Counted from the stretch's first letter, positions 1-19,609 are shown. The stretch is DNA of 20,000 nucleotides from an uncultured virus (IMG/VR IMGVR_UViG_3300010885_088079) (IMGVR_UViG_3300010885_088079), one strand, 5' to 3'. Notes: a model not told the origin generated them from the sequence alone. Translations and numbers: made by a program.

Positions 1-38
1 TTTTCATACATTTATTATAGTTTGTTTAGAAATATTTT

Positions 39-2474
39 TTAAGGTACGCATGGAGCATAGAACGGTGCCCCGCAAACTCTTTCTCCGTTAGCATTTGTCA
101 TGTCGGGATGACAATTGTCTGTGCAGGATCCAAGAGAATATTCATAATACCCTGGGCATTTCCCACCAGGAGCGTTTATACAATCGTCACCAGCCTCAGA
201 ATTATAGCACTGCCATATAAAAACTACTTCCCCATCACACCACGGTGGGGGGGGTGGAGTTTGGGGGGGTGGAGTTTGGTAAGTTGGTGGGGGTGTAGGC
301 ACAGGTATACATGTATAGTTTTCACATGTATAACCTGAAGGGCATCCGCAGAATCCACCGCACTCATCGCTTAAACCACAGCCATTTTCTAGACACTTAG
401 GAACACATTTGGTAGGAGTCGGATAAGGAGTCGGATAAGGAGTCGGATAAGGAGTGTAAGTAGGTGGATATGTTGGTGGCACCGTAGGTGTAGGTGTTTC
501 ACAGTAGCTACACGGCAAGCACATGCCACGGCAGTAGCACCAATCGCATGGACAACATGTAATTCCGGTGTCCGTTGTAAACGGACACAGCAGTATGATT
601 TTACATGGATCTGGATATGTTGGCGTAGGTGGAACAGTTGGCGTTGGCTCCGGTGTAGGCGTAGGCTCGTCCGTGGGCGTAGGCGTTGGTGGTTTTGTTG
701 GTGTAGGCGTTGGTGGTTTTGTTGGTGTAGGTTCTGGGGTTTTTGTTGGCGTGCTTGTTGGTGTGCCTGTTGGTGTGCCTGTTGGAGTTCCTGTTGGAGT
801 CTCTGTTGGAGTCTCTGTTGGAGTCTCTGTTGGAGTCTCTGTTGGAGTCTCTGTTGGAGTCTCTGTTGGAGTCTCTGTTGGAGTTTCTGTTGGAGTCTCT
901 GTTGGAGTTTCTGTTGGAGTTTCTGTTGGAGTTTCTGTTGGAGTTTCTGTTGGTGTTTCTGTTGGTGTTTCTGTTGGTGTTTCTGTTGGTGTTTCTGTTG
1001 GTGTTTCTGTTGGTGTTTCTGTTGGTGTTTCTGTTGGCTTTCCCGTAGTCGTTACCGTAGGCGTTGGCGTGGGCGACGGCGTTGGTGTTGGCGTTGGTGT
1101 TGATTCAACGCATGTCCCAGAGCCACTTCCGTCCTCCTGACACACGTATCCATCTGGACATCCACAGAAGGTTTCAATGCAATTATTAATGTTGCATCCT
1201 GGATCACCCCCGCAAATATAACCTGTACCACACCTTGGGGCTGATCCTTCTGGGCCTTGCAACACCGGGATGTAATCATAGCCACCGTATGGGTTAGCAG
1301 TCTTAACCATTACAAATTCATTCTGTGGGCAACCTGGGCAGGTCACTACTGGTGTTGGAGTGGGTGGTTCTGTAGGCGTTGGAGTAGGTGGAGTTGTTGT
1401 TGGAGTTGTTGTTGGTGTTTCTGTTGGTGTTTCTGTTGGTGTTTCTGTTGGTGTTTCTGTTGGTGTTTCTGTTGGTGTTTCTGTTGGAGTTTCTGTTGGA
1501 GTTTCTGTTGGTGTACTTGTTGGAGTTAGAGTGTTAGTGTTAGTTGGTGTAGGAGTAGGAGTGTTAGTTGGTGTAGGAGTAGGAGTACAACCTAAATCAC
1601 AATCTTTTTTACTCTTATAACATCCATCACAGGGAGATCCATTGTCTACACAGTTTCCATCAATACACATCCAATTACAGTCACTACACTGACACTCACA
1701 TGTACCACAACCAGGCAAGCTAGGATCGTACACCCAAACGCCAGGCAATCCACCTGGGCACGGTGATTTTTCACGACATAACTTTTGTAATTCTTCAATA
1801 TTAGTACATTCTGGTGTTGTTGTTGGTGTTGTTGTTGGTGTTTCTGTTGGTGTTTCTGTTGGTGTTTCTGTTGGAGTTTCTGTTGGAGTTTCTGTTGGAG
1901 TTTCTGTTGGAGTTGTTGTTGGAGTTGTTGTTGGTGTTGTTGTTGGTGTTTCTGTTGGTGTTTCTGTTGGTGTTTCTGTTGGTGTTTCTGTTGGTGTGTA
2001 TGTTGGTGTTTCTGTTGGTGTGTATGTTGGTGTTTCTGTTGGTGTGTATGTTGGTGTGTATGTTGGTGTTTCTGTAATAGTTGGAGTTGGGGTAGCTGTA
2101 GGACAAACAGGTATTGAACTATAGTATTCTTCTCCAAAATCTGAACAATACTGCGGTTTGCAGTTTTGATTTATTACGCCTATGTAAACTTTTTTGGTAA
2201 CAGACTCATAGGTTCCGTCTAGATTACAGTAATAACATGTTGTGTCTTCGTATTTTACACAATTATACGTTAACATTTCTTCGCATGTTTTTGCACATGC
2301 ACAAAGGCAATCTGTTTGTCCTTTGTAACATGGGTCCTGCGTGCATTTTCCGAAAGTGCAGTTGCTAGCACAGTCATATCCTTCACAACCAGAAGTACAT
2401 GGTTTAGCAAGGGAAAATACTACGTTTCCTAAGTCATTTAAGAAACCTTTTAATCTATCCCTTATTTTTACCAT
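39..2474 (-). CDS. Mucin-like Pro/Thr-repeat, cysteine-rich protein (811 aa); possible virion fibre/decoration or surface protein
   Basis: Long ORF with three ([12 protein letters not shown])n tracts separated by Cys-rich modules, including a repeated module ([10 protein letters not shown]...GTCV and [10 protein letters not shown]...YTCI). No hydrophobic signal peptide is visible. Its start overlaps the end of the upstream gene by 20 nt. The function is inferred. Confidence 0.8.
415..450. repeat. 12-nt tandem repeat GGAGTCGGATAA x3 (encodes YPTP on the minus strand)
   Basis: Directly visible at 415-426, 427-438 and 439-450. Confidence 0.9.
739..1038. repeat. 12-nt coding tandem repeat: 20 copies of GT(T/C)TCTGTTGG(A/T) at 799-1038 plus about 5 degenerate copies; encodes (PTET)n
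   Basis: Counted directly. Synonymous variants occur in homogeneous blocks (GTCTCTGTTGGA, then GTTTCTGTTGGA, then GTTTCTGTTGGT). Confidence 0.95.
1393..1524. repeat. Second 12-nt (PTET/PTTT)n coding repeat tract
   Basis: The same GTTTCTGTTGG(T/A) and GTTGTTGTTGG(T/A) units, about 11 copies. Confidence 0.9.
1813..2073. repeat. Third 12-nt ([12 protein letters not shown])n coding repeat tract
   Basis: The same unit family, with GTGTATGTTGGT (PTYT) variants; about 21 copies. Confidence 0.9.
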
Positions 2475-3717
2475 AATTTTCTACCAAAAAGCTGATTTTT
2501 ATTAGATCTATTTCGTTTTTTTCTCCATAGTTCAATAAATTATTTATGTTATCTATGATCGTTTTTTGGTCATCAGAATTTAACTGAGAGGAGGAAACTA
2601 TTTCTAAATAGTTTCCTGAGCACCTTACTTCTTTTATTTCTTTAAAAAATGATAGTTTCTCTCTTACCTTTAGGATGCTTTTACCTTTTATTAGGAATGG
2701 TCTATTATCTAAAAACTCAAATTCTCTGTACAATCTACCGCAATCACATCTTTGATAATTTTTATTGTCTATTTTACATAAATCTCCGTTCCAATAGTTA
2801 ACAAAAGGACTCGCTAAGGAGAAATAATCTGTTGATATTAGTTTATTGTCTTTCTCCACGCACCACGATATATTGTCCATTAAATGGTAGTTTTCTTCTT
2901 TACATGTAAAGAATGTCGCACCACCATCCCAGCATCTCATGTGATCGCAAATACTATCAAAAAGATTGTTATCTTTTACATATTTGATTGTCTTTGCCAT
3001 GAGCTTTTCATTTGTATTGCTGAGAAGTGTAGAAATTTTTACATTTAAGTTTTTTCTTTGTAGGTAATTACACAGAGCACTTAAGTTGGGACCAGTAGTA
3101 AATGTCACATCTATTTTATTATTTTTAATGTGGTTCACTAGATAGTGAAAAAAAGCATCACTGTTTTGCCTAAAAGCTTCAAAGTTTGTGTAATGAATTG
3201 TTCCATTTCTCTTTCTTCCATGATGCTCCATAAAGTTTTTAGAGTCGCTTCTTACTTCTATGACTTCTTTAATTGGCAACTTTAGGTCAAAAAAGAATAA
3301 AATATTGGGTTGCTCTTTGATGTTGAATTCATCCAAAATAAGATCATAATGATTATCGCACTCTATAAAGTGCAAAAAGTCTTCCCATCTTCGATAGGAG
3401 AAAGAATAACCAGTGGTGCTACCACTTGTAGCCATAGGGCATGAGTTTATCTCTTCAACATACCACTTATCTTTGTTTATAAGATCCGCCTTTTCAGCGA
3501 ATTCCTTTCGTTCTAGATAAGAAAATATAGGGCTTTTTTCTTGTGCCCAAAGATGTATGTTTAGTATAAGAAGCTTTATAGTATCTCTTACTAGGTCTTC
3601 ATCTTCATATAAGAGATTAGTGCATATCTTTTTGTAGTCAAAAAGCATTTGCTTGCTTGGAAGCTCTTTGTTGCTCCATTTTTTAATGAAGCTTATTACT
3701 TCCTGTGTATTCCGCAT
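2455..3717 (-). CDS. Phenylacetate-CoA ligase/CapK-like adenylate-forming (ANL superfamily) enzyme
   Basis: P-loop-like [13 protein letters not shown] (equivalent to the RYxTGD motif) and CDCGR Zn-knuckle, all typical of the PaaK/CapK family. The start is placed at ATG 3717 (MRNTQ, after AGAGAGGG) rather than 3765 to reduce overlap with the upstream gene. Confidence 0.75.
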
Positions 3718-4367
3718 CCCTCTCTTAGAAAAAAGTTCAAAGTTATCTTGTTTGTATGAGCCCATTTAAAGTCTTTCCATCTAGAAACAAGGTCCCAATC
3801 GTTACATTTTTTTACATATCTCCAACCACCAAACTTATTTATTAACCATCTTTTGTGCATTATCTCTGAGCTATCTATGTAGCCTTGTTTTGGGGCATTA
3901 TTATGAATTCTTTGCCCAACAACTTTGAGATTATTATCTATAAGTCTAGTACCAGTGTATGCCATATCTGAATCATTATCTTTGATAACTTTGTATAGGC
4001 TTTCAATGTGATCTTTTTCAAACCAGTTATCGTCGTCAAGATAACAGATTATGTTATTGTCACTATTCATTATTGCAAAGTTTCTCGGACCCCAACCTGC
4101 TCCGCTACAATGCATCGGAAGATTGAAGTATTTGAACCTACAGTCTTTTTTTGCAACACTTTTGCAGAAAACATCTGCTTCTTTGCATAAGTCACATTCA
4201 ATGCAATTTAGTTCAGACTTAGAGCATGAGTCTTTGATTAGGAAACAGTCAAAGTGAGGATATGTTTGCTCTATTACAGAGTTAGTGGATCTTTCAATCC
4301 ATTCTATTGGTGAGTGATATGTGGGTAAGCAAACCAATATTTTTTCGGGTTGTTTGTACCGTAGCAT
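3696..4367 (-). CDS. Family 2 glycosyltransferase (GT-A fold)
   Basis: N-terminal VCLPTY, SVIEQTY, PRNFAI, ICYLDDDN (DxD), and GGW...DWDL. An AAGGAGGT Shine-Dalgarno sequence lies just upstream of ATG 4367. Confidence 0.9.
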   Translation of the reverse strand: MLRYKQPEKILVCLPTYHSPIEWIERSTNSVIEQTYPHFDCFLIKDSCSKSELNCIECDLCKEADVFCKSVAKKDCRFKYFNLPMHCSGAGWGPRNFAIMNSDNNIICYLDDDNWFEKDHIESLYKVIKDNDSDMAYTGTRLIDNNLKVVGQRIHNNAPKQGYIDSSEIMHKRWLINKFGGWRYVKKCNDWDLVSRWKDFKWAHTNKITLNFFLREGCGIHRK

Positions 4368-4413
4368 CCACCTCCTTGCGGCCAAAAGCTAATTTCGAAT
4401 TAGCCAGCATTCC

Positions 4414-4441
4414 TTGACAAAACTTTCAGCTGTGGTATATA
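4414..4441 (+). promoter_or_regulatory. Putative sigma70-type (early) promoter for the ParB-like gene
   Basis: TTGACA (4414-4419), N16, TATATA (4436-4441), with TG immediately upstream as in an extended -10. It lies in the divergent intergenic region. Confidence 0.6.
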
Positions 4442-4553
4442 GGATTTTTGTCTTCGATTTTACAATGGGGTTTTCCGTGCTAAACTCATACTAACGGTCC
4501 ATTTCGAACGCTTCGATTTGGAGTGCCGTGCTACATCAGTTACGAGGTGATTA

Positions 4554-5597
4554 ATGAGCGGATCTGTTGGATCTATAGCGGACCTTATGCTCGCGAAGCA
4601 AAAAAGGCTGCCGATACCTGATCTTGAAGTTAAACGAACCATTGTTTCGGATTCATCTGCCGAGCAGATAGAGGCGATTCAGCGTGAGGCTGTGATCAAC
4701 CGAGATCATTACCTTTCTGAGTCTCGACGTTCTGGTCTGCCTTGGTTCAAATGCATTCGTAAGCCCATCCAATATAGTGAGTTTGTCATGCTTACTAGAG
4801 AGATGGCAGAAGAAATTAAAAAAGACATCTGGTCGGTTGCCGAAGGCAACAGAAACATCAAAAGGCTCCACGTTGAAGCCTTGCAGCGTGACATTGAAGC
4901 AGGAAGATGGCTTCCAACTCATGAATCGATTGCAATCGATGTCAACGGCCAGACAAACGACGGCCAGCATCGCTTGACTGCTTTTTTGAATTCCTCAAAG
5001 TCTGAGGTTTGCTTCTACATCACTTTTAACGTCCTGCCGGAAGCCAAATTCGCTGTAGACAGTGGATCTAAGCGAAATACTGGTGAAAAGCTCTCCATGA
5101 TCATTGATAGAAAGTGGGGATCTAAGGTCACTGGCTTCTGTCGGGCTATAATGCGTGGAGTTAATGCAAAAGCCCGATATACAGATTCCGAGATCGCAGA
5201 ATTTGCAACCACTTGGGAACCTGTAGTGGAATGGGTCATGGATCATTGCCCCAAAGCCGCTGCGGAGATTCAAGCTGCTATTGCCAAGATGTACATTTTT
5301 TATGGTCCCGATCTTATCGCTGATTTTTGCGATAGATTCAGGAATGTACGCTTTATTGAAGAGGGTGATCCTGCGAAGGCCTTGTATGTTCAAGTGGACC
5401 GTATAAAGGGCTGTCCGGACCTTAAGAAATATCGGTTGACACTTAGTGCATTGAATGCACTAGTGAACAACAGAAAGGTTAAGGTCTTAAGAGAGATCGA
5501 TGGAGACATCTTTGATTGGGAAAAAGGTCGCTCTAATAGAGAGTGGAATGCTCCCAAGGATTCTTGGTGGGCAAGGGTTGGATCGAAGCAAGTTTGA
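4554..5597 (+). CDS. Phage ParB-like (ParB/Srx fold, DGQHR motif) protein with a helical C-terminal domain
   Basis: LTREMAEE...NRNIK...HESIAIDVNGQTNDGQHRLTA...DSGSKR pattern of phage ParB-N-like proteins. GAGGTG Shine-Dalgarno sequence upstream, with its own promoter and terminator. Confidence 0.8.
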   Translation: MSGSVGSIADLMLAKQKRLPIPDLEVKRTIVSDSSAEQIEAIQREAVINRDHYLSESRRSGLPWFKCIRKPIQYSEFVMLTREMAEEIKKDIWSVAEGNRNIKRLHVEALQRDIEAGRWLPTHESIAIDVNGQTNDGQHRLTAFLNSSKSEVCFYITFNVLPEAKFAVDSGSKRNTGEKLSMIIDRKWGSKVTGFCRAIMRGVNAKARYTDSEIAEFATTWEPVVEWVMDHCPKAAAEIQAAIAKMYIFYGPDLIADFCDRFRNVRFIEEGDPAKALYVQVDRIKGCPDLKKYRLTLSALNALVNNRKVKVLREIDGDIFDWEKGRSNREWNAPKDSWWARVGSKQV

Positions 5598-5617
5598 CCC
5601 TACAATGTGACCTAAGG

Positions 5618-5654
5618 AGGGGCTCTACGTGAAATACCGTAGAGCCCCTTTTTT
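5618..5654 (+). terminator. Rho-independent terminator after the ParB-like gene
   Basis: Perfect 12-bp stem AGGGGCTCTACG / CGTAGAGCCCCT with an 8-nt loop, followed by a T-run, 20 nt after the stop codon. Confidence 0.9.
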
Positions 5655-5679
5655 ATAACTATGACAAAAGGTTGAGGCT

Positions 5680-7275
5680 ATGAATCAAATTAAGATAGAT
5701 TTCTGGATAAGCAACAATCAAAATGTTTTGTTTTCCGGCAAGCATGGTGTTGGTAAAACAGCTATCGTAAAAGATTCATTTGAGCGTCATGGTCTTAACT
5801 ACAGGTACTTTTCCGCATCTACTATGGATCCTTGGGTGGACTTCATAGGAGTTCCTAAAGAAAAGTCCTTAGGGGCATCATCCGAACAAATGCTTTTAGT
5901 CAAAGATCTAATCCGTCTTGATCAAAAAATTGCTGTTGATTGGGTCATGAAAAACTGGGGCATGAGCAAAGAGTCCTCTGAGAAGATAGTCTCTAGCTTA
6001 TCTCTTGGAAATGATACCTATTTAGAACTTGTTAGACCGGAAGTCTTTGCAACTGGTGAGATAGAAGCATTGTTCTTTGATGAATTCAACAGAAGTCCCA
6101 AGAAGGTTAGAAACGCAGTCATGGAGCTGCTGCAGTTTAAGTCAATCAATGGACATGTTTTTCCTAAATTAAGGCTAATATGGGCAGCTATCAACCCAGA
6201 AGATGATTCATTGAATTCTTATGATGTTGAAAAAATGGATCCGGCCCAAAAGGACAGATTTCATGTATTTGTATCTGTGCCCTACAAACCTAATGTTGAA
6301 TGGTTTAGGGATAAGTACGGAAAAAAGATTGCAGATGCTTCTGTGTGTTGGTGGAATGAGTTAGAGAACAAGGATGAGGTTTCTCCTAGAAGGCTTCAAT
6401 ATGCCTTAGACACTTACTTAAAAAAGGGCGATCTTAGAGACGTTCTTCCTCCATCTAGCAATGTCTCAAAGCTATACAACGCACTCAGCAGCGGACCTGT
6501 TTTAGAAAAACTTCATGAATTTATGTCTAGCGGACGGCAAGAGGAAGCCATAGTATTTCTCTCAAATGAGAACAATTTTGCTTCTGCAATAAAGTACATA
6601 GTTAAATCAAACGATTTAATGGCATACTTTCTTCCTCTGATACCAAAGGAAAAAATATCTGCAATTCTCTCACAAAACGATAGCACTTCTTCGTTCATAA
6701 TTTCCAACTCTCTTCGTGTGCCAGTTTTTAAAGAGATTTGTGGCGAAGTAATAAAGGCATCAACAAACAGTTCCTTAGTAAAAAAAATACGTAGACATTT
6801 TACAGAATCTCAGTTTGTTATGAACGAAGGAGTTGGGAAGTGTAAATTCTTCTGCAATAAGAATGTAGACCAAAACGTCTGGGTGGACCTGTTGAAGGCG
6901 ATGTCAACTCTGGATACAAGAAAAGATAGGCTCAATATAATGTCCAACATAGCCTCAAATATACCGGAAAATATTTATTTGCCACAGATAAAAACTTGTC
7001 TTGACCTTATTTCTAAGCTAGACCCTGAGCCGTCAGAGATTGTTGAAGGAACGATAAAAGCTACTCCTTGGTCGAATTTTGTTGAGATCGTCAACCATTT
7101 AATTCGTGAGGGTATTTCTTTATCATCTTTGGACAAAGAATTTCTTCCTGTGCCTCGTGATCAAGCTTTGATATCGTTTAAAGAATCCAACATTCAATCC
7201 TTATCAAAGATCTATGCGGCTATAAAGTTGGCTGGTTTTGAGGAATCAGTAATTAGATCGTGCGAGCAATTATGA
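5680..7275 (+). CDS. MoxR-like AAA+ ATPase (AAA_5/dynein-related) with a long C-terminal extension
   Basis: Walker A GKHGVGKT, Walker B LFFDEFNR, sensor-1 AAINP, arginine finger DPAQKDRF, sensor-2 SPRR. Confidence 0.9.
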   Translation: MNQIKIDFWISNNQNVLFSGKHGVGKTAIVKDSFERHGLNYRYFSASTMDPWVDFIGVPKEKSLGASSEQMLLVKDLIRLDQKIAVDWVMKNWGMSKESSEKIVSSLSLGNDTYLELVRPEVFATGEIEALFFDEFNRSPKKVRNAVMELLQFKSINGHVFPKLRLIWAAINPEDDSLNSYDVEKMDPAQKDRFHVFVSVPYKPNVEWFRDKYGKKIADASVCWWNELENKDEVSPRRLQYALDTYLKKGDLRDVLPPSSNVSKLYNALSSGPVLEKLHEFMSSGRQEEAIVFLSNENNFASAIKYIVKSNDLMAYFLPLIPKEKISAILSQNDSTSSFIISNSLRVPVFKEICGEVIKASTNSSLVKKIRRHFTESQFVMNEGVGKCKFFCNKNVDQNVWVDLLKAMSTLDTRKDRLNIMSNIASNIPENIYLPQIKTCLDLISKLDPEPSEIVEGTIKATPWSNFVEIVNHLIREGISLSSLDKEFLPVPRDQALISFKESNIQSLSKIYAAIKLAGFEESVIRSCEQL

Positions 7276-8483
7276 GCATCAAGATTGAAAATGATGAATG
7301 GATGGATTTATTGTTCTCTTTGGAGAACCACCATGCGGTGTTTTACAAACTTTGGCAGATAGGCAAGCCTCTATTCACAGAAGAGATAGAGACCGCAGCC
7401 TGCCAGTTTGATAAGTCCGGTAACTTTGTTGTGTTTCTTTTTAACCCTGAATTTTGGAATAGCTTAGATCAGTATAACAGGCTGTTCGTAATATGTCATG
7501 AATGCTTGCACTTGATGCTTAACCATGGAGTTCGTATTAAGGATTCTAAGTTTTCAAACAGACAAGCTTGTAATCAATGCTTAGATGTCGTTGTCAATCA
7601 CTTATTGGTTGAAAGCTTTAATTTCGATAGAAATAAGCTTTTTGATGGAGAAAGCTACTGTTGGGTTGACACAGTGTTCCCTGATACTAATGTTTCTACA
7701 AAGGAGACTTTTGAGTATTACTATCAGCTTTTCGAAAAGTCTTATGGAGACGGATCACCTATAGCAGACACACATACTGTTGATGACCACAAAGCCATGC
7801 AGTGTGATTCTTTCAACCCGATAGATGTTGTCTCGCAAATGTCTGACTTTGAAAAAGGCACACTCTCTGTTCTGTCAAAGCATATCGGACAGGAAAAAGG
7901 AAAAGATTGGGCGATAATTACTGGGCGACCAAAAATTAAGCAGAAGTGGGAAAGCGTGATCAAAAATTGGTCAATTAGAAGAAAAAAAGATATTACCAAA
8001 GAGTTGGAACAATGGGCTAGATTGAACAGAAGATTGTCTCCAATGCGATCAGACTTAATGCTCCCATCGGAGATGGAAGTTGATGACTGCTTATTTGAGA
8101 AATCCAAGATAAGAGTTTGCTTTTTTCTTGACTCCTCTGGCTCCTGTTGGCATCTAAAAGACAGGTTTTTTCAAGCGGCCTTGTCGCTTGACCCTAAAAT
8201 GTTTAGTGTAGACCTTTTCTGTTTCGATGTGGCTGTCCACAAGGTGGACCAACGGGAATTGAAGGTTTTTGGAGGTGGTGGAACTTCATTTGCCATAATA
8301 GAGAGCCACCTCCAAGACTCTGGCGAAAACTATCCGGATGGCGTATTCGTAATTACAGACGGGTTCGGAGACAAGGTTCTACCTAAGTTTCCAAATAGAT
8401 GGAATTGGTTTCTTACGGAGGATGGAAGAGACTCTCTCTTGCCAAAAAACAGCAACGTTTATCAACTTTCAGACTTTGAATGA
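7272..8483 (+). CDS. HEXXH metallopeptidase-like plus VWA-domain protein (DUF2201-like), partner of the MoxR ATPase
   Basis: FNPEFW...HECLH (HEXXH) at the N-terminus. MIDAS motif DSSGS, GGGT and ITDG at the C-terminus. ATGA overlap with the ATPase stop at 7272-7275. Confidence 0.88.
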   Translation: MSIKIENDEWMDLLFSLENHHAVFYKLWQIGKPLFTEEIETAACQFDKSGNFVVFLFNPEFWNSLDQYNRLFVICHECLHLMLNHGVRIKDSKFSNRQACNQCLDVVVNHLLVESFNFDRNKLFDGESYCWVDTVFPDTNVSTKETFEYYYQLFEKSYGDGSPIADTHTVDDHKAMQCDSFNPIDVVSQMSDFEKGTLSVLSKHIGQEKGKDWAIITGRPKIKQKWESVIKNWSIRRKKDITKELEQWARLNRRLSPMRSDLMLPSEMEVDDCLFEKSKIRVCFFLDSSGSCWHLKDRFFQAALSLDPKMFSVDLFCFDVAVHKVDQRELKVFGGGGTSFAIIESHLQDSGENYPDGVFVITDGFGDKVLPKFPNRWNWFLTEDGRDSLLPKNSNVYQLSDFE

Positions 8484-8498
8484 AATAGGAGAATGATT

Positions 8499-8924
8499 AT
8501 GAATCGAACAGCACAAATCAATAGCGTAGTTAACCAAATGGTCCGCTGCGGAAGAGAGAATGTGAAGATATCTGCAGAAAAGAAAGAGCATTATGCTTGT
8601 GAATATGAGCAAGAGATATTTCTTGCTCTGGACTTGATACCGCAAGCACAAGCCACCTTCCAAGCTGTTGTTGCAAAAAAACTTAAGTCTGATGAACGAG
8701 AAAAAGTCATTAAGTTTTGCATTGACTTTAAAAACAGGAATTTTTCTGGTCCTAATGATCCTATTTTTTTGCTTTGGAGATTTTTGAAGACCGCAAATAG
8801 AAAGCCTAGCAATCTCTATCCTAGTGTTTCTTATGCTTTGAGGTCTTATTTGGACGGCAAAAAGATTAGATCTATTAGAAATGATAGGTCTTTTAAAGAC
8901 ATTATGGAGAAGGAGATGGTGTAG
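8499..8924 (+). CDS. Hypothetical protein homologous to the C-terminal domain of the ParB-like protein at 4554-5597
   Basis: An AGGAG Shine-Dalgarno sequence favours ATG 8499. It aligns manually, nearly without gaps, to about residues 200-313 of the ParB-like protein. Confidence 0.75.
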   Translation: MNRTAQINSVVNQMVRCGRENVKISAEKKEHYACEYEQEIFLALDLIPQAQATFQAVVAKKLKSDEREKVIKFCIDFKNRNFSGPNDPIFLLWRFLKTANRKPSNLYPSVSYALRSYLDGKKIRSIRNDRSFKDIMEKEMV

Positions 8925-9462
8925 TATCTATAAAAAAGTCATCTTCCAACTTCAATAGCTCTTCTAATGCTATTATGGACCAAGGTCCATAATTAAGTTG
9001 ATACTTAAATTCTTGAGGAAGGTCTTTGGTTAAGACAACACAAAACCAGGGTCTTCTTTTTTTCTTCCAACAAAGCATTGGTTTTCTGCTACATCTTTTT
9101 GCATCCTTAGAAACCTGGCTTAGGAATCCGTCTAATTCTGTGCTTCCTTTGATGAAAACCGAGTTTAAATCTATGCCTTCATATCCGCCTTTGCTCTCAA
9201 GAACAAATTTGAATCCTTGCGGCACCACCAGATCACCAGAAAAAACCTCTCTAGCATGTTGAGGTAGGTTGTTAACTTGTGACCATCTATTCCCAGAGCC
9301 AACGGATCTGCTAAAGCCAGTACCAAATCTTTTATTCAAGATTTTTGAAAGCTCTAGCTCTACTCTATTTCCTTTTTTCTTTCCGTTGATTCTTTTTTTC
9401 TTTTTTTCGAATATTCCTTCGTCCGTGATGAAATCTTCTGAATCTTCAAATTCATAACTCAT
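8902..9462 (-). CDS. Holliday junction resolvase-like PD-(D/E)XK nuclease (Hjc-type)
   Basis: KKKGNRVELELSKIL, RSVGSG, SGDL, LESK and the C-terminal PMLCWKKKRRPW pattern of phage Hjc-like resolvases. Confidence 0.75.
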   Translation of the reverse strand: MSYEFEDSEDFITDEGIFEKKKKRINGKKKGNRVELELSKILNKRFGTGFSRSVGSGNRWSQVNNLPQHAREVFSGDLVVPQGFKFVLESKGGYEGIDLNSVFIKGSTELDGFLSQVSKDAKRCSRKPMLCWKKKRRPWFCVVLTKDLPQEFKYQLNYGPWSIIALEELLKLEDDFFIDTTPSPSP

Positions 9463-9493
9463 ACAATTATATATGAGTTTTTATTATAACATT

Positions 9494-10600
9494 CTAAAAG
9501 AAATGTGATAATAATTTGGCAATAGAGTTATCTATTTCTTTGAGTTGGTTAATGGTTTCTTCAAAAAGTTCTTTTTCCATGGTCTCTTTGTTGACCGCAT
9601 AACGTAGTTCTAACTCTACATTTTTTGCCTTTTCTATTATTCTAGCAACATACTCTTCGGCCGAATTTAGATCATATTCGCTCCATAAAGAACTTCTTTC
9701 TTTTCTAATAATCTGATCGTTTTCATCTAGTTTCGATATTAAGTTGAAATGAGGCGTTCCACTTGGTATCGTAAAAAATTCTTCCCCCACCTCCTCAGAC
9801 TCGTCCCCAAGTGTAAGTCTGTATCTGTTAGAGCTTAATGTATTGTCTACTAAACTTAAATGCCAAATTTCTTTTGGATGTACTTCAATTAGTTTGTAGC
9901 ACATAGATAGAAGCCTACTATCACACTCATTACACGCTTCTTCCCATATGCTAGGTTCTGATACAAAAAATACTTGTCCTAATTCTTCCCTTAAGTCCGA
10001 TATCCACAGTGGCCTGTACTCGTTTCTAAATAGAAGTAGTGATCTTTGTCCGCTTTCTTGTCTTATTCCTGTTGCTACGGCCATATGGCCAAATTGTATT
10101 AAGCTAAATATTCTTTTAACTGATTCTAGCTCTCTATCAACTATTGTTTTGTTTGATTTTATGGTGGACTCAAAAATACGAAGAAGAATTTCAGAATCGC
10201 ATTGGGTAGAAACTTCATAGTTTTTTCTTAACTCATAATATTCATCGTCTTCTATTCTTCCATTGTGTGCTAAAGCTATTGTTTTGTCGTTCGACGTAAA
10301 GGGGTGGTTGTTTTCATTAAAAAATGGTTCCCCTACACCTTTCGAGGCTCCTCTGGCATGAGCTATAACTAAATCAACTTCAAAGTTAGACAAACCAGAC
10401 CAGAATCTACTTTTTACGAAGCTACTAGACCTTGTTGGTTCTTTGTGATAGATCACGCTGCCGTTGAAACCACACTCGGCAGCCCAAAAGCCAGCAGCGT
10501 CTGTACCTCTAGACTCACTCTTTTCAAATAGTTTTGTTAAAAGCTGATAGCTTAAGTTCTTATCTTTTGATTTACCAATAAAGCCAGTTATGCCACACAT
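9494..10600 (-). CDS. Class II (Ntn) glutamine amidotransferase domain protein with a C-terminal coiled-coil
   Basis: MCGI (catalytic Cys2), RGTDAAG, HARGAS, NNHPF, HNG and DSE. No SIS, PRTase or synthetase domain is recognisable. Confidence 0.88.
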   Translation of the reverse strand: MCGITGFIGKSKDKNLSYQLLTKLFEKSESRGTDAAGFWAAECGFNGSVIYHKEPTRSSSFVKSRFWSGLSNFEVDLVIAHARGASKGVGEPFFNENNHPFTSNDKTIALAHNGRIEDDEYYELRKNYEVSTQCDSEILLRIFESTIKSNKTIVDRELESVKRIFSLIQFGHMAVATGIRQESGQRSLLLFRNEYRPLWISDLREELGQVFFVSEPSIWEEACNECDSRLLSMCYKLIEVHPKEIWHLSLVDNTLSSNRYRLTLGDESEEVGEEFFTIPSGTPHFNLISKLDENDQIIRKERSSLWSEYDLNSAEEYVARIIEKAKNVELELRYAVNKETMEKELFEETINQLKEIDNSIAKLLSHFF

Positions 10601-10794
10601 TAATTTTCTTCTTCCTTTTGGGCTTTATTGCCGCCCTGGAAAAGTCTCCATCCGTGTGCTGCTATTGCACAAAGTTCTTCAAAAGAATATTCGGATAGAG
10701 GAATGCCAAAGAATGTAGCATTCTCTGCTTCTTTGAACCATTCCCGAGGCAGGTTGCTGTGAATGGTTAAATCGTAACCTTTTTTATCTAGCAT
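10600..10794 (-). CDS. Hypothetical protein (64 aa)
   Basis: Fills the gap between guaC (2-nt spacing) and the GATase (1-nt TAATG overlap), on the same strand. Confidence 0.7.
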   Translation of the reverse strand: MLDKKGYDLTIHSNLPREWFKEAENATFFGIPLSEYSFEELCAIAAHGWRLFQGGNKAQKEEEN

Positions 10795-10796
10795 AA

Positions 10797-11852
10797 TTAG
10801 TGGTTGTTAGAAACTCTTACAAATTTTGCACACTTGTTAAAGTCTTTTAGTTTTCCTGCTCCTATGTAGGCACCGCAACTTCTTAACCCCCCTAAAATTT
10901 CCTGTACAATACTAGAAACTGGACCCTTGTACGGTACTTTAGAAACCTTACCTTCGGATGCTCTGTATTCTTTCTTTCCTGCTCCGTGTTTTTCTTGAGC
11001 ATAGTGGCTGCTCATTCCATAGAAAGTAAGAGATTTCTTCGCACTCGAAACAACTCCACCATTGTTTTCGTACTCCCAGTCTCCCTCACACTCATCTGCC
11101 CCAGCAAACATGCCCCCTATCATCACCCAGTCCGCACCAGAGCATATGGCCTTACAGATATCACCAACGGTCTTGCATCCTCCATCGCTCATTACCAATC
11201 CTAGCTTTCCATCGCCAGAACTTAATCCATGAGCTGCGTGGGAGCACTCTACGTTACATGAAAAGGTGCCATATCCTACACCAGTCATTTTTCTAGTTTC
11301 ACATTGTGATCCGGGCCCTATTTGGATTTTACATATGTCTACTTTTCCATGGATAATTAGCTCTTGGCATATTTCTGGTGTTGTGACGTTTCCTGCACAA
11401 ATTATACTTTCTGGAAATTCCTTTCTTACAGTAGCACAAAAATGTACAAAGCTTTCCATATATCCGTTTGGAACATCTATTACAATGTTTGTTGGCTCTC
11501 CCAATAGTTTGCTCACAGCTTTAATTTTTTCTAGATCATCATCAGATTTGCCTATAGTTGTCCAAGCGTATGCTATGCCTGCTTCCTCTATAATCCCTGC
11601 TAGTTCTTCTGCACTGTAATACTTGTGCAACGCAGTTGCGATCTTATAAGAGGACAACTTAATAGCCATCTTTTTTGATGTAAGGGGGACCATGTTGGAA
11701 CACATTAGAGGAATTCCAGTCCACACTCTTGGGCTGTAGTAAAACTTAAAATTTCTTTCTAAAGCAACTTGCTTTCTGCTTTCTAGGGTGGTTCTTTGAG
11801 GAACAATTAGAACATCATCATAATTTAATTTTACTTCTGGAGCTAAAAACAT
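10797..11852 (-). CDS. guaC: GMP reductase (GuaC type 1)
   Basis: LNYDDVLIVP, IDVPNGYMESF, AGNVTT, IGPGSQC (catalytic Cys), SDGG, FYGMSS and YRASEGK. No CBS domains. AGGAG Shine-Dalgarno sequence before ATG 11852. Confidence 0.88.
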   Translation of the reverse strand: MFLAPEVKLNYDDVLIVPQRTTLESRKQVALERNFKFYYSPRVWTGIPLMCSNMVPLTSKKMAIKLSSYKIATALHKYYSAEELAGIIEEAGIAYAWTTIGKSDDDLEKIKAVSKLLGEPTNIVIDVPNGYMESFVHFCATVRKEFPESIICAGNVTTPEICQELIIHGKVDICKIQIGPGSQCETRKMTGVGYGTFSCNVECSHAAHGLSSGDGKLGLVMSDGGCKTVGDICKAICSGADWVMIGGMFAGADECEGDWEYENNGGVVSSAKKSLTFYGMSSHYAQEKHGAGKKEYRASEGKVSKVPYKGPVSSIVQEILGGLRSCGAYIGAGKLKDFNKCAKFVRVSNNH

Positions 11853-11982: not shown

Positions 11983-12252
11983 ATGAATTTCTTCGAATTA
12001 GACCAACAAGTATCACAGCAGACTAGCTTAACCCCTGCGTCGAATGACGAGACAGGCATTGATAAAAATGGCTACATAAGAATAGCTGGTAAAATTGCAC
12101 AAAAGCTAGGAGAAAAGTCAAATACCTATACTCCTTTGGTTAGATATGTTGCAAGAAACCCCAAAATGTTGCAATTACTAGAGAAGTTAATAGAAGAAAC
12201 AAGTCTAGCTCAATCTGGTAAGTTGAAAGCTGTTGTTTCAAGCTACAAGTAG
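11983..12252 (+). CDS. Hypothetical protein (89 aa)
   Basis: AAGGA Shine-Dalgarno sequence and an upstream TAAATA motif. It fills the intergenic space without overlap. Confidence 0.75.
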   Translation: MNFFELDQQVSQQTSLTPASNDETGIDKNGYIRIAGKIAQKLGEKSNTYTPLVRYVARNPKMLQLLEKLIEETSLAQSGKLKAVVSSYK

Positions 12253-19525: not shown

Positions 19526-19609
19526 ATTTTGGAAATGCCTTTTCTTTAAGCATAGGACTAAAGGTCTATTAATGAAATAGGCTGGTTCCTTAATTCGAAT
19601 GTTGAATAG

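Follow-up and report, generated by a model that had tools for sequence, protein, structure and literature searches.

A ParB-like protein and a free-standing paralog of its C-terminal domain, interleaved with a MoxR-like ATPase and peptidase-VWA cassette in uncultured jumbo phages

The DNA analysed here is a stretch of 20,000 nucleotides (nt) from an uncultured virus (IMG/VR IMGVR_UViG_3300010885_088079), referred to below as the window. Between positions 4554 and 8924 it carries four consecutive plus-strand genes, which encode a ParB/sulfiredoxin (Srx)-like protein (P0001), a MoxR-like AAA+ ATPase (P0002), a protein combining a zincin-like peptidase with a VWA part (P0003) and a small protein (P0004). 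We found that P0004 is a true and old paralog of the seven-helix C-terminal domain of P0001, and that the ParB-like gene and this detached copy are linked in evolution, the small gene accompanying the ParB-like gene in 17 of 20 informative lineages and occurring in none of 37 clusters that lack the latter. The ATPase and the peptidase-VWA protein form a widespread and self-sufficient cassette. Our best explanation, which we hold at about even probability, is that the locus interleaves two modules of two genes each, separable from one another, within a single variable slot of a jumbo-phage backbone. The original prediction, made from the sequence alone, had correctly located the four plus-strand open reading frames (ORFs) and had read them as one four-component module; as an obligate unit, such a module is contradicted by the relatives of the locus.

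P0004 is a paralog of the ParB-like C-terminal domain

The P0004 gene (8499-8924, plus strand) encodes 141 amino acids (aa). Its true start is the ATG at 8499, as AGGAG lies 7 nt upstream and the homologs begin with MNR. BLASTP aligned residues 182-273 of P0001 with residues 1-90 of P0004 at 32.7 bits (E value 2e-6). Profile-profile comparison by hhalign, using P0004 with eight close homologs (64-81% identity, nine sequences in all) against 22 ParB-like sequences, gave a probability of 97.3% and an E value of 2e-11 over 120 columns at 21% identity, placing P0004 residues 11-130 on P0001 residues 194-314. This significant score bears out, in both range and identity, the earlier manual alignment of the ORF with about residues 200-313 of the ParB-like protein. 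P0004 contains no ParB N-terminal domain, and the prediction was equally right that the ParB/DGQHR part is missing entirely.

The nine-sequence P0004 profile matched 65 proteins at E ≤ 1e-3 among 1.84 billion representatives. Most of them are stand-alone forms of 126-240 aa, and the profile also matches the C-terminal part of ParB-like proteins of 316-410 aa, whose domain layout was checked. A profile of 45 stand-alone members scored 94.8 bits on P0001 residues 192-325 and matched the C-terminal part of every intact ParB-like protein from 30 related loci and the window. No Pfam family is shared by any of the 45 members, and 8 of the 45 match phrog_5931. The 65 proteins, which are representatives at 50% identity, constitute an unannotated domain family with neither a Pfam nor a PHROG family of its own.

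The AlphaFold models of P0004 (predicted local distance difference test, pLDDT, 92.2) and of the P0001 C-terminal domain (pLDDT of the P0001 model, 84.4) contain seven helices in identical order. The ten best BFVD matches of the P0004 model were phage proteins of 264-376 aa (probability 0.98-1.00, template modelling score by query 0.55-0.73), so that the fold comparison agrees with the profiles in pointing to the C-terminal part of phage ParB-like proteins; the named ones are mycobacteriophage proteins annotated as 'ParB-like nuclease domain protein' (e.g. from Mycobacterium phage Baee) or 'helix-turn-helix DNA binding domain protein'. The invariant residues Pro50, Ala58, Phe75, Phe84, Asp89, Pro90 and Tyr109 of P0004 correspond to the conserved Pro232, Ala241, Phe258, Phe267, Asp272, Pro273 and Tyr293 of P0001, and the motif F-x-G-x-x-D-P is common to both paralogs. 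P0004 is basic, with an isoelectric point (pI) of 9.6, and its lineage lacks the D-I-F-E-W tail borne by most family members. Among solved structures, Foldseek gave no match to P0004 at E ≤ 0.001, and the best VIA Z score was 4.3, with weak rows for BrxU (3.8), SspE (3.2) and DndI (2.9) that were treated only as leads. Judged from the models, the P0001 C-terminal domain and P0004 thus appear to have no convincing solved counterpart. The ESM Atlas yielded no usable match to P0004, and its own model of the protein is poor (pLDDT 0.44).

The parent protein P0001 (4554-5597, plus strand, 347 aa) matches phrog_5931 with an E value of 6e-24. It consists of a variable N-terminus, a ParB/Srx-like domain at about residues 70-185, the seven-helix C-terminal domain at about residues 190-305 and a conserved D-I-F-x-W tail. 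Structural alignment of the N-terminal domain by VIA gave Z scores of 5.6 for both sulfiredoxin (root-mean-square deviation 3.3, 82 residues aligned) and PadC (88 residues aligned), 5.0 for KorB and 4.7 for pNOB8 ParB, and the top ten Foldseek matches were all ParB, Noc or pNOB8 ParB, with weak E values of 0.03-0.34. The scores are modest and the two methods agree, suggesting that the modelled domain has a ParB/sulfiredoxin-like fold. At the position of the nucleotide-binding loop, where ParB has GERRxR and DndB-like proteins have DGQHR, P0001 carries N-D-G-Q-H-R, with [DN]-G-[QR]-H-R as the family form; Gly137, His139 and Arg140 are invariant in the 22-sequence alignment.

Family models give less. 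No Pfam family, ParBc and DndB included, matched P0001 at E ≤ 1, and sub-threshold Pfam DndB matches were seen in 2 of 27 relatives (E values 6e-4 and 4e-3). NCBIfam (including TIGR00180) and PADLOC returned nothing relevant for any of the four proteins, and a sequence search of solved structures with the ParB-like profile found no match. With regard to canonical ParB features, P0001 therefore matches no ParB family model, and its C-terminal domain has no clear solved match. 'ParB-like', 'MoxR-like' and 'zincin + VWA' are reasonable working names, and curated-threshold membership was reached only for DUF2201_N in P0003. A link to 7-deazaguanine DNA modification, with a DpdB-like role for P0001, gained no support, as no TGT/DpdA (PF01702), dnd or dpd gene was seen in the 126-kb source contig, itself only 26% complete.

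A tree of the domain separated 11 stand-alone domains from 21 ParB-like C-terminal domains by a branch with support of 100/99. The topologies of the two halves mirror each other, with the window and locus L004 as sisters in both (L numbers denote loci), and the stand-alone branches are longer, the end branches of the window measuring 0.85 versus 0.23 for the ParB-like C-terminal domain. The clean split and the mirrored topologies indicate one old duplication followed by co-divergence. An old duplication with unrelated genes in between had been named as the alternative to a functional module; it holds as history, although what lies between the two copies is a recurrent cassette rather than random fill. 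In record G003, 0.77 kb upstream of the small gene (5402-6355, minus strand), a 155-aa ORF (L057 7122-7589, minus strand) encodes a degenerate ParB N-terminal domain that reads D-G-L-M-R-L where the motif would be D-G-Q-H-R. It is 27-37% identical to all ParB-like N-terminal domains and no closer to the copy in its own genome. This possible relic, a single example, points to a second ParB-like copy, originally full-length, as the source of the small gene after the N-terminal domain was lost. The small gene of L057 lies in a 317-aa frame, with a probable start at an internal Met near residue 111.

Distribution among related phages

Scans of IMG/VR with the single P0004 or P0001 sequence gave no confirmed relatives, and alignment-based scans were needed. 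A scan with the ParB-like alignment yielded 29 loci, which together with the window and LR756511.1 formed 20 clusters at ≥95% identity. L032, with fragmented genes, was outside the clustering and was added as the 21st lineage, and L028 is cut by the contig end, leaving 20 informative lineages. The stand-alone family was sampled via the ParB-like or the peptidase-VWA genes, plus context-free library matches. In the window the four genes are followed by a convergent gene for a PDDEXK nuclease, and LR756511.1, a 595-kb uncultured phage, has these five genes, in this order, as well.

The small gene was found in 17 of the 20 informative lineages, on the same strand as the ParB-like gene and within 11 kb downstream of it. 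Flanks of 7 kb had first suggested eight lineages without it; whole-record searches were then applied and located it 2.2-8 kb further downstream, with three to six genes between, in six lineages (five of the eight and L032). It directly follows the peptidase-VWA gene in seven lineages and is spaced further downstream in six; in two more, which lack the ATPase-peptidase pair, it is the next gene after the ParB-like gene, and in a final two (L019 and L023) an unrelated coiled-coil protein of 533 aa is encoded between the ParB-like gene and the small gene. Of the 20 lineages, 16 contain the ATPase-peptidase pair, in every case directly behind the ParB-like gene, and the other four have the ParB-like and small genes without it. 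No peptidase-VWA gene was found in the four records of these pair-less lineages, which are fragments of 17-67% completeness. The predicted four-gene order therefore does recur in related uncultured jumbo phages, but the genes also occur apart: 4 of 20 lineages lack the pair and 3 of 20 the small gene, and when the peptidase-VWA gene was the entry point of the sampling, 37 of 52 clusters had neither the ParB-like nor the small gene.

The latter sample comes from a scan that confirmed 144 relatives, of which the best 80 loci were kept. Three (L070, L102 and L104) were dropped because the gene runs off the contig, and the remaining 77 fell into 52 clusters. Their backbone comprises a baseplate hub, a 247-aa protein (p247), the ATPase, the peptidase-VWA protein, the convergent PDDEXK nuclease and a glutamine amidotransferase; the variable slot of this conserved backbone extends between p247 and the nuclease gene. 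All 52 clusters have the ATPase and peptidase-VWA genes side by side. Fifteen also carry the ParB-like gene, and the other 37 have the ATPase and peptidase-VWA genes only, the small gene being absent from every one of them. In whole records, the stand-alone-domain profile matched none of five without a ParB-like gene, one of which is a 100%-complete genome of 209 kb, and all ten with it; among these ten, six have a stand-alone copy and the others only the ParB-like C-terminal domain or a remnant.

Mapped onto a peptidase-VWA tree of 53 rows, the presence of the ParB-like gene changes seven times, and at least five of these changes are forced by well-supported branches; L108, for instance, which has neither gene, is sister to L001 (LR756511.1), which has both (support 96). 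Since the ParB-like and small genes lie on either side of the retained cassette, it takes two separate deletions to produce each joint absence. In five independent, phylogenetically corrected contrasts the small gene followed the ParB-like gene in a mean of 3.3, behaved oppositely in 0 and showed no difference in 1.7. The association of 17 of 20 versus 0 of 37 supports an evolutionary link between the ParB-like gene and its detached copy. Kept with its parent over deep divergence and repeatedly lost with it, the small gene offers a testable pair for the role of the C-terminal domain.

Several loci show further peculiarities. In L019 (8035-9636, plus strand) and L023 (7958-9568, plus strand), the protein in place of the ATPase-peptidase pair has 533-536 aa and a long C-terminal coiled coil. 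A diverged ATPase was considered as its identity and rejected (BLASTP E value 1.2), and it belongs to no Pfam or PHROG family, with only sub-threshold coiled-coil-type matches. In L058 (record G006), a 550-aa protein is encoded between the small gene and the PDDEXK gene (9386-11038, minus strand) and has a weak match to the ParB-like N-terminal domain (profile positions 90-248, E value 2e-7), making it a third ParB-fold gene at that locus. In L059 (record G011, 3184-7545), each of the genes for the ParB-like protein, the ATPase and the peptidase-VWA protein is broken up into three to five frames, and the small gene and the PDDEXK gene downstream are intact. Assembly errors are as likely a cause as decay, as many other ORFs there are short too.

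Locus organization and possible function

P0002 (5680-7275, plus strand, 531 aa) matches phrog_1297, labelled 'ATPase', with an E value of 1.4e-17. It has the Walker A motif GKHGVGKT and the Walker B motif FFDEFNR, in keeping with the Walker A and hhhDExNR combination of MoxR-type ATPases. In 14 sequences Gly23, Gly25, Lys26, Asp134 and Glu135 are invariant, and Asn137 and Arg138 are at least 90% conserved. The Pfam scores for AAA_3 (16.0 bits, cut-off 27), AAA_5 (15.0 bits, cut-off 22) and AAA are all below the curated cut-offs, and the C-terminal part of about 330 aa belongs to no known family. The best solved match of the 14-sequence profile was 2r44_A (E value 1e-8, the next match having 1.4e-3), labelled 'Uncharacterized protein' by its depositors, which we take to be a MoxR-family ATPase. 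The same search of solved structures found nothing for P0002 alone or for the peptidase-VWA profile.

P0003 (7272-8483, plus strand, with an alternative GTG start at 7260) exceeds the gathering score of Pfam DUF2201_N (29.4 bits, cut-off 23.2) and matches phrog_1314 with an E value of 1.6e-30. Among 14 sequences His80, His84 and His89 of an HExxH...H motif are invariant and Glu81 is at least 90% conserved; the residues Asp291, Ser293, Gly294, Ser295, Thr342 and Asp367 are likewise invariant and fit a metal-ion-dependent adhesion site (MIDAS). No VWA family model was reported for P0003 in the Pfam scan. In PHROGs and in some phage records (NC_020849.1, PV565044.1) phrog_1314 is labelled 'HNH endonuclease'. 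This label is probably wrong, because HNH features are absent from P0003 and 13 relatives, which instead have HExxH and MIDAS-type residues.

The signals between the genes divide the locus. A promoter-like site (4414-4441, plus strand; TTGACA, 16 nt, TG-n-TATATA), read by eye and unscored, lies 110 nt 5' of the ParB-like gene; the consensus promoter scan did not list it. Directly 3' of the ParB-like stop, RNA folding revealed an intrinsic-terminator-like hairpin with a U-run (5614-5656, plus strand) of -27.5 kcal/mol (z -5.9), which 0 of 200 shuffles folded equally well. A comparable hairpin and T-run were seen, by eye from the folds, in 11 of 14 ParB-to-ATPase spacers; spacers with a GC-rich hairpin and T-run after the ParB-like gene include those of L001, L005, L008, L009, L011, L012, L015, L022, L026 and L029. 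In at least five relatives a site resembling TTTACA-N17-TGGTA(G/T)AAT (again by eye, unscored) comes next after the hairpin. The succession looks like a conserved terminator-promoter punctuation, and it may represent the promoter style of this phage group. Further downstream, the ATPase stop and the peptidase-VWA ATG at 7272 overlap as ATGA, and the small gene starts 15 nt past the peptidase-VWA stop; the corresponding gaps are 6-11 nt in L001, L004, L024, L026 and L029. On these spacings the ATPase, peptidase-VWA and small genes are judged to be translationally coupled in the window. Because of the terminator after the ParB-like gene, the ATGA overlap and the 15-nt spacer with AGGAG, the locus is likely to be transcribed as two units, the ParB-like gene and, after the terminator, the ATPase, peptidase-VWA and small genes.

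In the organization that we propose, one module is the MoxR-like ATPase with the zincin-peptidase/VWA protein, and the other is the ParB-like gene with the free copy of its C-terminal domain, an accessory pair that is gained, kept or lost together and can exist without the cassette. A complex of P0001 (residues 30-347) with P0004 was predicted with a median score of 0.45, the best of three controls reaching 0.02; at least 94% of contacts are common to the runs, and the partner has a pLDDT of at least 82. This modelling places the pair above its controls, but is graded as weak support. We give an even chance to P0004 being a paralogous heteromer partner or a competitor of the ParB-like protein. 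In that case the ParB-like protein would act as a switch that depends on nucleotide and associates with DNA, its C-terminal domain providing a partner- or DNA-contacting surface. The free copy would bind it as a paralogous heteromer, or compete for the same ligand, and thereby set the oligomeric or DNA-bound state of the ParB-like protein. The ATPase-peptidase pair may remodel or process the ParB-like protein and P0004 when both modules are present, and would be dispensable.

Several observations weigh against this proposal. Three lineages (L012, L016 and L018) lack the small gene but retain the other four, for the ParB-like, ATPase, peptidase-VWA and PDDEXK proteins; when all six frames were searched with the profile and with filters off, L016 and L018 showed no hidden copy and L012 only a 26-residue remnant. 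A sign test on the paired contrasts gave a median p of 0.25, consistent in direction, not significant and underpowered. The peptidase-VWA tree was built by a 'quick' method and may differ from the genome tree, and all loci belong to one related group of uncultured jumbo phages with strong synteny, many of them from fragment records. A search of 3600-9600 for parS-like repeats or repeated palindromes found only short, scattered matches of the kind expected by chance. In the calibration of the complex-prediction tool, 116 of 157 solved complexes and 2 of 215 mismatches reached the mark, with 18 of the 157 solved complexes and both mismatches at scores ≤0.60; a score of 0.45 therefore falls in a range that is more often wrong than right unless the complex is likely beforehand. 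Finally, in small phages this ParB-like family works without a stand-alone copy.

Some of these points would fit a job for P0004 independent of the ParB-like protein, as a free-standing nucleic-acid-binding or regulatory protein whose co-occurrence reflects shared ancestry and synteny. We regard this as somewhat unlikely. The single syntenic group, the faster evolution of the small gene (0.85 versus 0.23), its dispensability in 3 of 20 lineages, the basic pI of 9.6 and the sign test that is not significant all agree with it, but the repeated joint absence takes two separate deletions each time, the small gene occurs without the ParB-like gene in none of 37 clusters and none of five whole records, and identical invariant positions are kept in both paralogs.

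A reading that joins all four genes transfers the logic of MoxR-vWA 'ternary' systems to a ParB-like protein. A DGQHR-type, nucleotide-gated DNA clamp would be closed or oligomerized by its C-terminal domain, the liberated C-terminal paralog would cap that surface as a co-evolving antagonist or adaptor, and removal or cleavage of the cap by the co-transcribed MoxR-like ATPase and zincin/VWA protein, where present, would then switch the clamp during infection. We consider this improbable; if true, it would be a case of a protein under the control of a detached copy of one of its domains.

The obligate version of such a machine, in which the detached domain serves as a linker, decoy or cap for the ParB-like protein and the MoxR-VWA-peptidase pair remodels or cleaves that protein, is very unlikely. 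It would account for the coupling of the three downstream genes in the window and the short gaps in relatives, and for the pair, when present, directly following the ParB-like gene in 16 of 16 lineages; MoxR-vWA pairs are moreover proposed to act on a third, adjacently encoded protein (PMC7159879). However, 37 of 52 clusters, the N4-like phages and Burkholderia phage BCSR5 have the pair alone, 4 of 20 lineages have the ParB-like and small genes without the pair, and 3 of 20 have lost the small gene. Three to six other genes separate it from the peptidase-VWA gene in six lineages, the coiled-coil protein takes the place of the pair in L019 and L023, and a strong terminator, in several relatives with a promoter-like site read by eye, splits the ParB-like from the ATPase gene.

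The PDDEXK gene of the window (8902-9462, minus strand; Pfam PDDEXK_15 E value 9e-25, phrog_244 E value 4e-17) overlaps the small gene by 23 nt at its 3' end and marks the far boundary of the variable slot. That P0004 serves this nuclease as an adaptor or inhibitor, targeting a resolvase-like enzyme to DNA bound by the ParB-like protein, has equally little probability. In its favour, no more than 2 kb lies between the nuclease gene and the small gene in 16 of 17 lineages, even where three to six genes are inserted between the peptidase-VWA gene and the small gene, and in L021 the two adjoin on the same strand instead of convergently. Against it, the nuclease gene occupies the same backbone position in 27 of 37 clusters without the small gene (mostly directly after the peptidase-VWA gene, within about 0.5 kb) and in L012, L016 and L018, no PDDEXK gene was found in 47-85 kb of contig in L027 despite the presence of the small gene there, and in their usual convergent orientation the pair is not co-transcribed. 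Because the nuclease is there with or without the small gene, their adjacency mainly reflects the boundary of the slot.

The 20-kb window derives from contig G001 of 126.5 kb, whose CheckV completeness of 26% indicates a genome of jumbo size. Near-identical DNA is contained in freshwater metagenome runs, and no RNA run was among the seven listed (four studies). A DNA-level search of the region against a phage collection gave zero matches. The flanking genes are of the large-phage type and encode a class II ribonucleotide reductase, an SbcCD-like nuclease, glycosyltransferases, the PDDEXK nuclease, a protein resembling IMPDH/GMP reductase and a class II glutamine amidotransferase. The last (9494-10600, minus strand) has the amidotransferase N-terminal domain and an unassigned C-terminal part of about 200 aa; its homologs adjoin the PDDEXK gene in most relatives, making it a fixed neighbour across the phage group, and in the window the IMPDH/GMP-reductase-like gene comes after it. 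The four genes had been described as the only long plus-strand island among minus-strand genes, which is correct overall, with exceptions in an 89-aa ORF (11983-12252) and a glycosyltransferase gene at 19599 that runs off the window end. The composition is mosaic: the G+C content is 0.45-0.50 over an 811-aa ORF (39-2474, minus strand) and 0.32-0.36 over the next genes (window 1-2500 versus 2000-4500), and returns to 0.46 at the ParB-like gene.

Comparison with known systems

ParB/Srx-fold proteins are now seen as nucleotide-driven switches beyond chromosome partition, and phages hold many uncharacterised ones. The present locus is a natural case in which the partner domain of a ParB/Srx-like protein has been released as a separate gene, and it reveals the MoxR-like ATPase and zincin/VWA pair as a self-contained cassette in a variable jumbo-phage slot. 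Literature searches found no description of an arrangement of a ParB-like protein, a MoxR-VWA-peptidase pair and a stand-alone C-terminal domain, in line with the original prediction, which knew of none. The main text of a survey of ParB-fold proteins (bioRxiv 10.1101/2025.10.10.680097) mentions neither MoxR nor vWA; detection in that survey was of the PF02195 type, which the P0001 family evades.

The closest relatives of P0001 outside the jumbo phages are phrog_5931 proteins of small phages, such as Vibrio phage 1.131.O gp04, Rhizobium phage RHph_Y52 EVC29_097 and the 'ParB-like nuclease domain protein' of the Mycobacterium prophage prophiGD43A-5, which combine a ParB/Srx-like N-terminal domain with the seven-helix C-terminal domain. 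By tblastn they are 23-28% identical over 63-73% of P0001, and the ParB-like profile matches them with E values of 1e-17 to 1e-25; the stand-alone-domain profile matches the C-terminal part of the Vibrio phage 1.131.O protein with an E value of 8e-8. They differ in that there is no stand-alone copy, no adjacent ATPase-peptidase pair and no fixed neighbours, and the jumbo-phage proteins have a longer, variable N-terminus. DndB and other DGQHR-type ParB/Srx proteins share the [DN]-G-[QR]-H-R motif and a ParB fold followed by a helical region, and DndB-like proteins are reported to bind ATP and GTP in the survey named above (bioRxiv 10.1101/2025.10.10.680097). However, P0001 has no curated-threshold match to this type, and its C-terminal domain reaches only Z 2.9-3.8 against BrxU, SspE and DndI.

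The MoxR-vWA 'ternary' conflict systems likewise place a MoxR-like AAA+ ATPase beside a peptidase-bearing vWA protein, with a third protein alongside, and the logic proposed for them is an ATP-driven restructuring of that third component (Kaur, Burroughs, Iyer, Aravind, eLife 2020, PMC7159879). In these systems the third component is VMAP, iSTAND, FtsH or a beta-propeller, and 'ParB' occurs 0 times in the main text of that study (PMC7159879). None of these four domains was found in the four window proteins by Pfam, PHROG or NCBIfam, nor any defence model by PADLOC. The window locus differs further in the peptidase, which is N-terminal to the vWA part (DUF2201_N type), in residing in a phage, and in being a mutually dispensable pair.

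Homologs of the cassette itself, in the same order, are present in N4-like phages (Schitoviridae) and in Burkholderia phage BCSR5. By tblastn, P0003 is 23-25% identical to the proteins of four N4-like phages over 77-85% of the query, and phmmer gave E values of 1e-60 for the ATPase and 1e-25 for the peptidase-VWA protein of BCSR5. An Alteromonas phage record annotates the pair as 'ATP-binding protein' and 'metallopeptidase'. Unlike the jumbo-phage loci, these phages have no ParB-like gene, stand-alone domain or PDDEXK neighbour, and in the N4-like phages the pair lies between rIIAB and replication genes.

The CTP-dependent clamps ParB, Noc and KorB resemble P0001 in the fold of the N-terminal domain, with no TIGR00180/ParBc match here. 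A precedent for a small separate protein controlling a ParB-like protein is given by KorA and KorB, whose co-complex 8qa9 was among the Foldseek matches; KorA, however, is not a paralog of a domain of KorB itself, unlike P0004 with respect to P0001.

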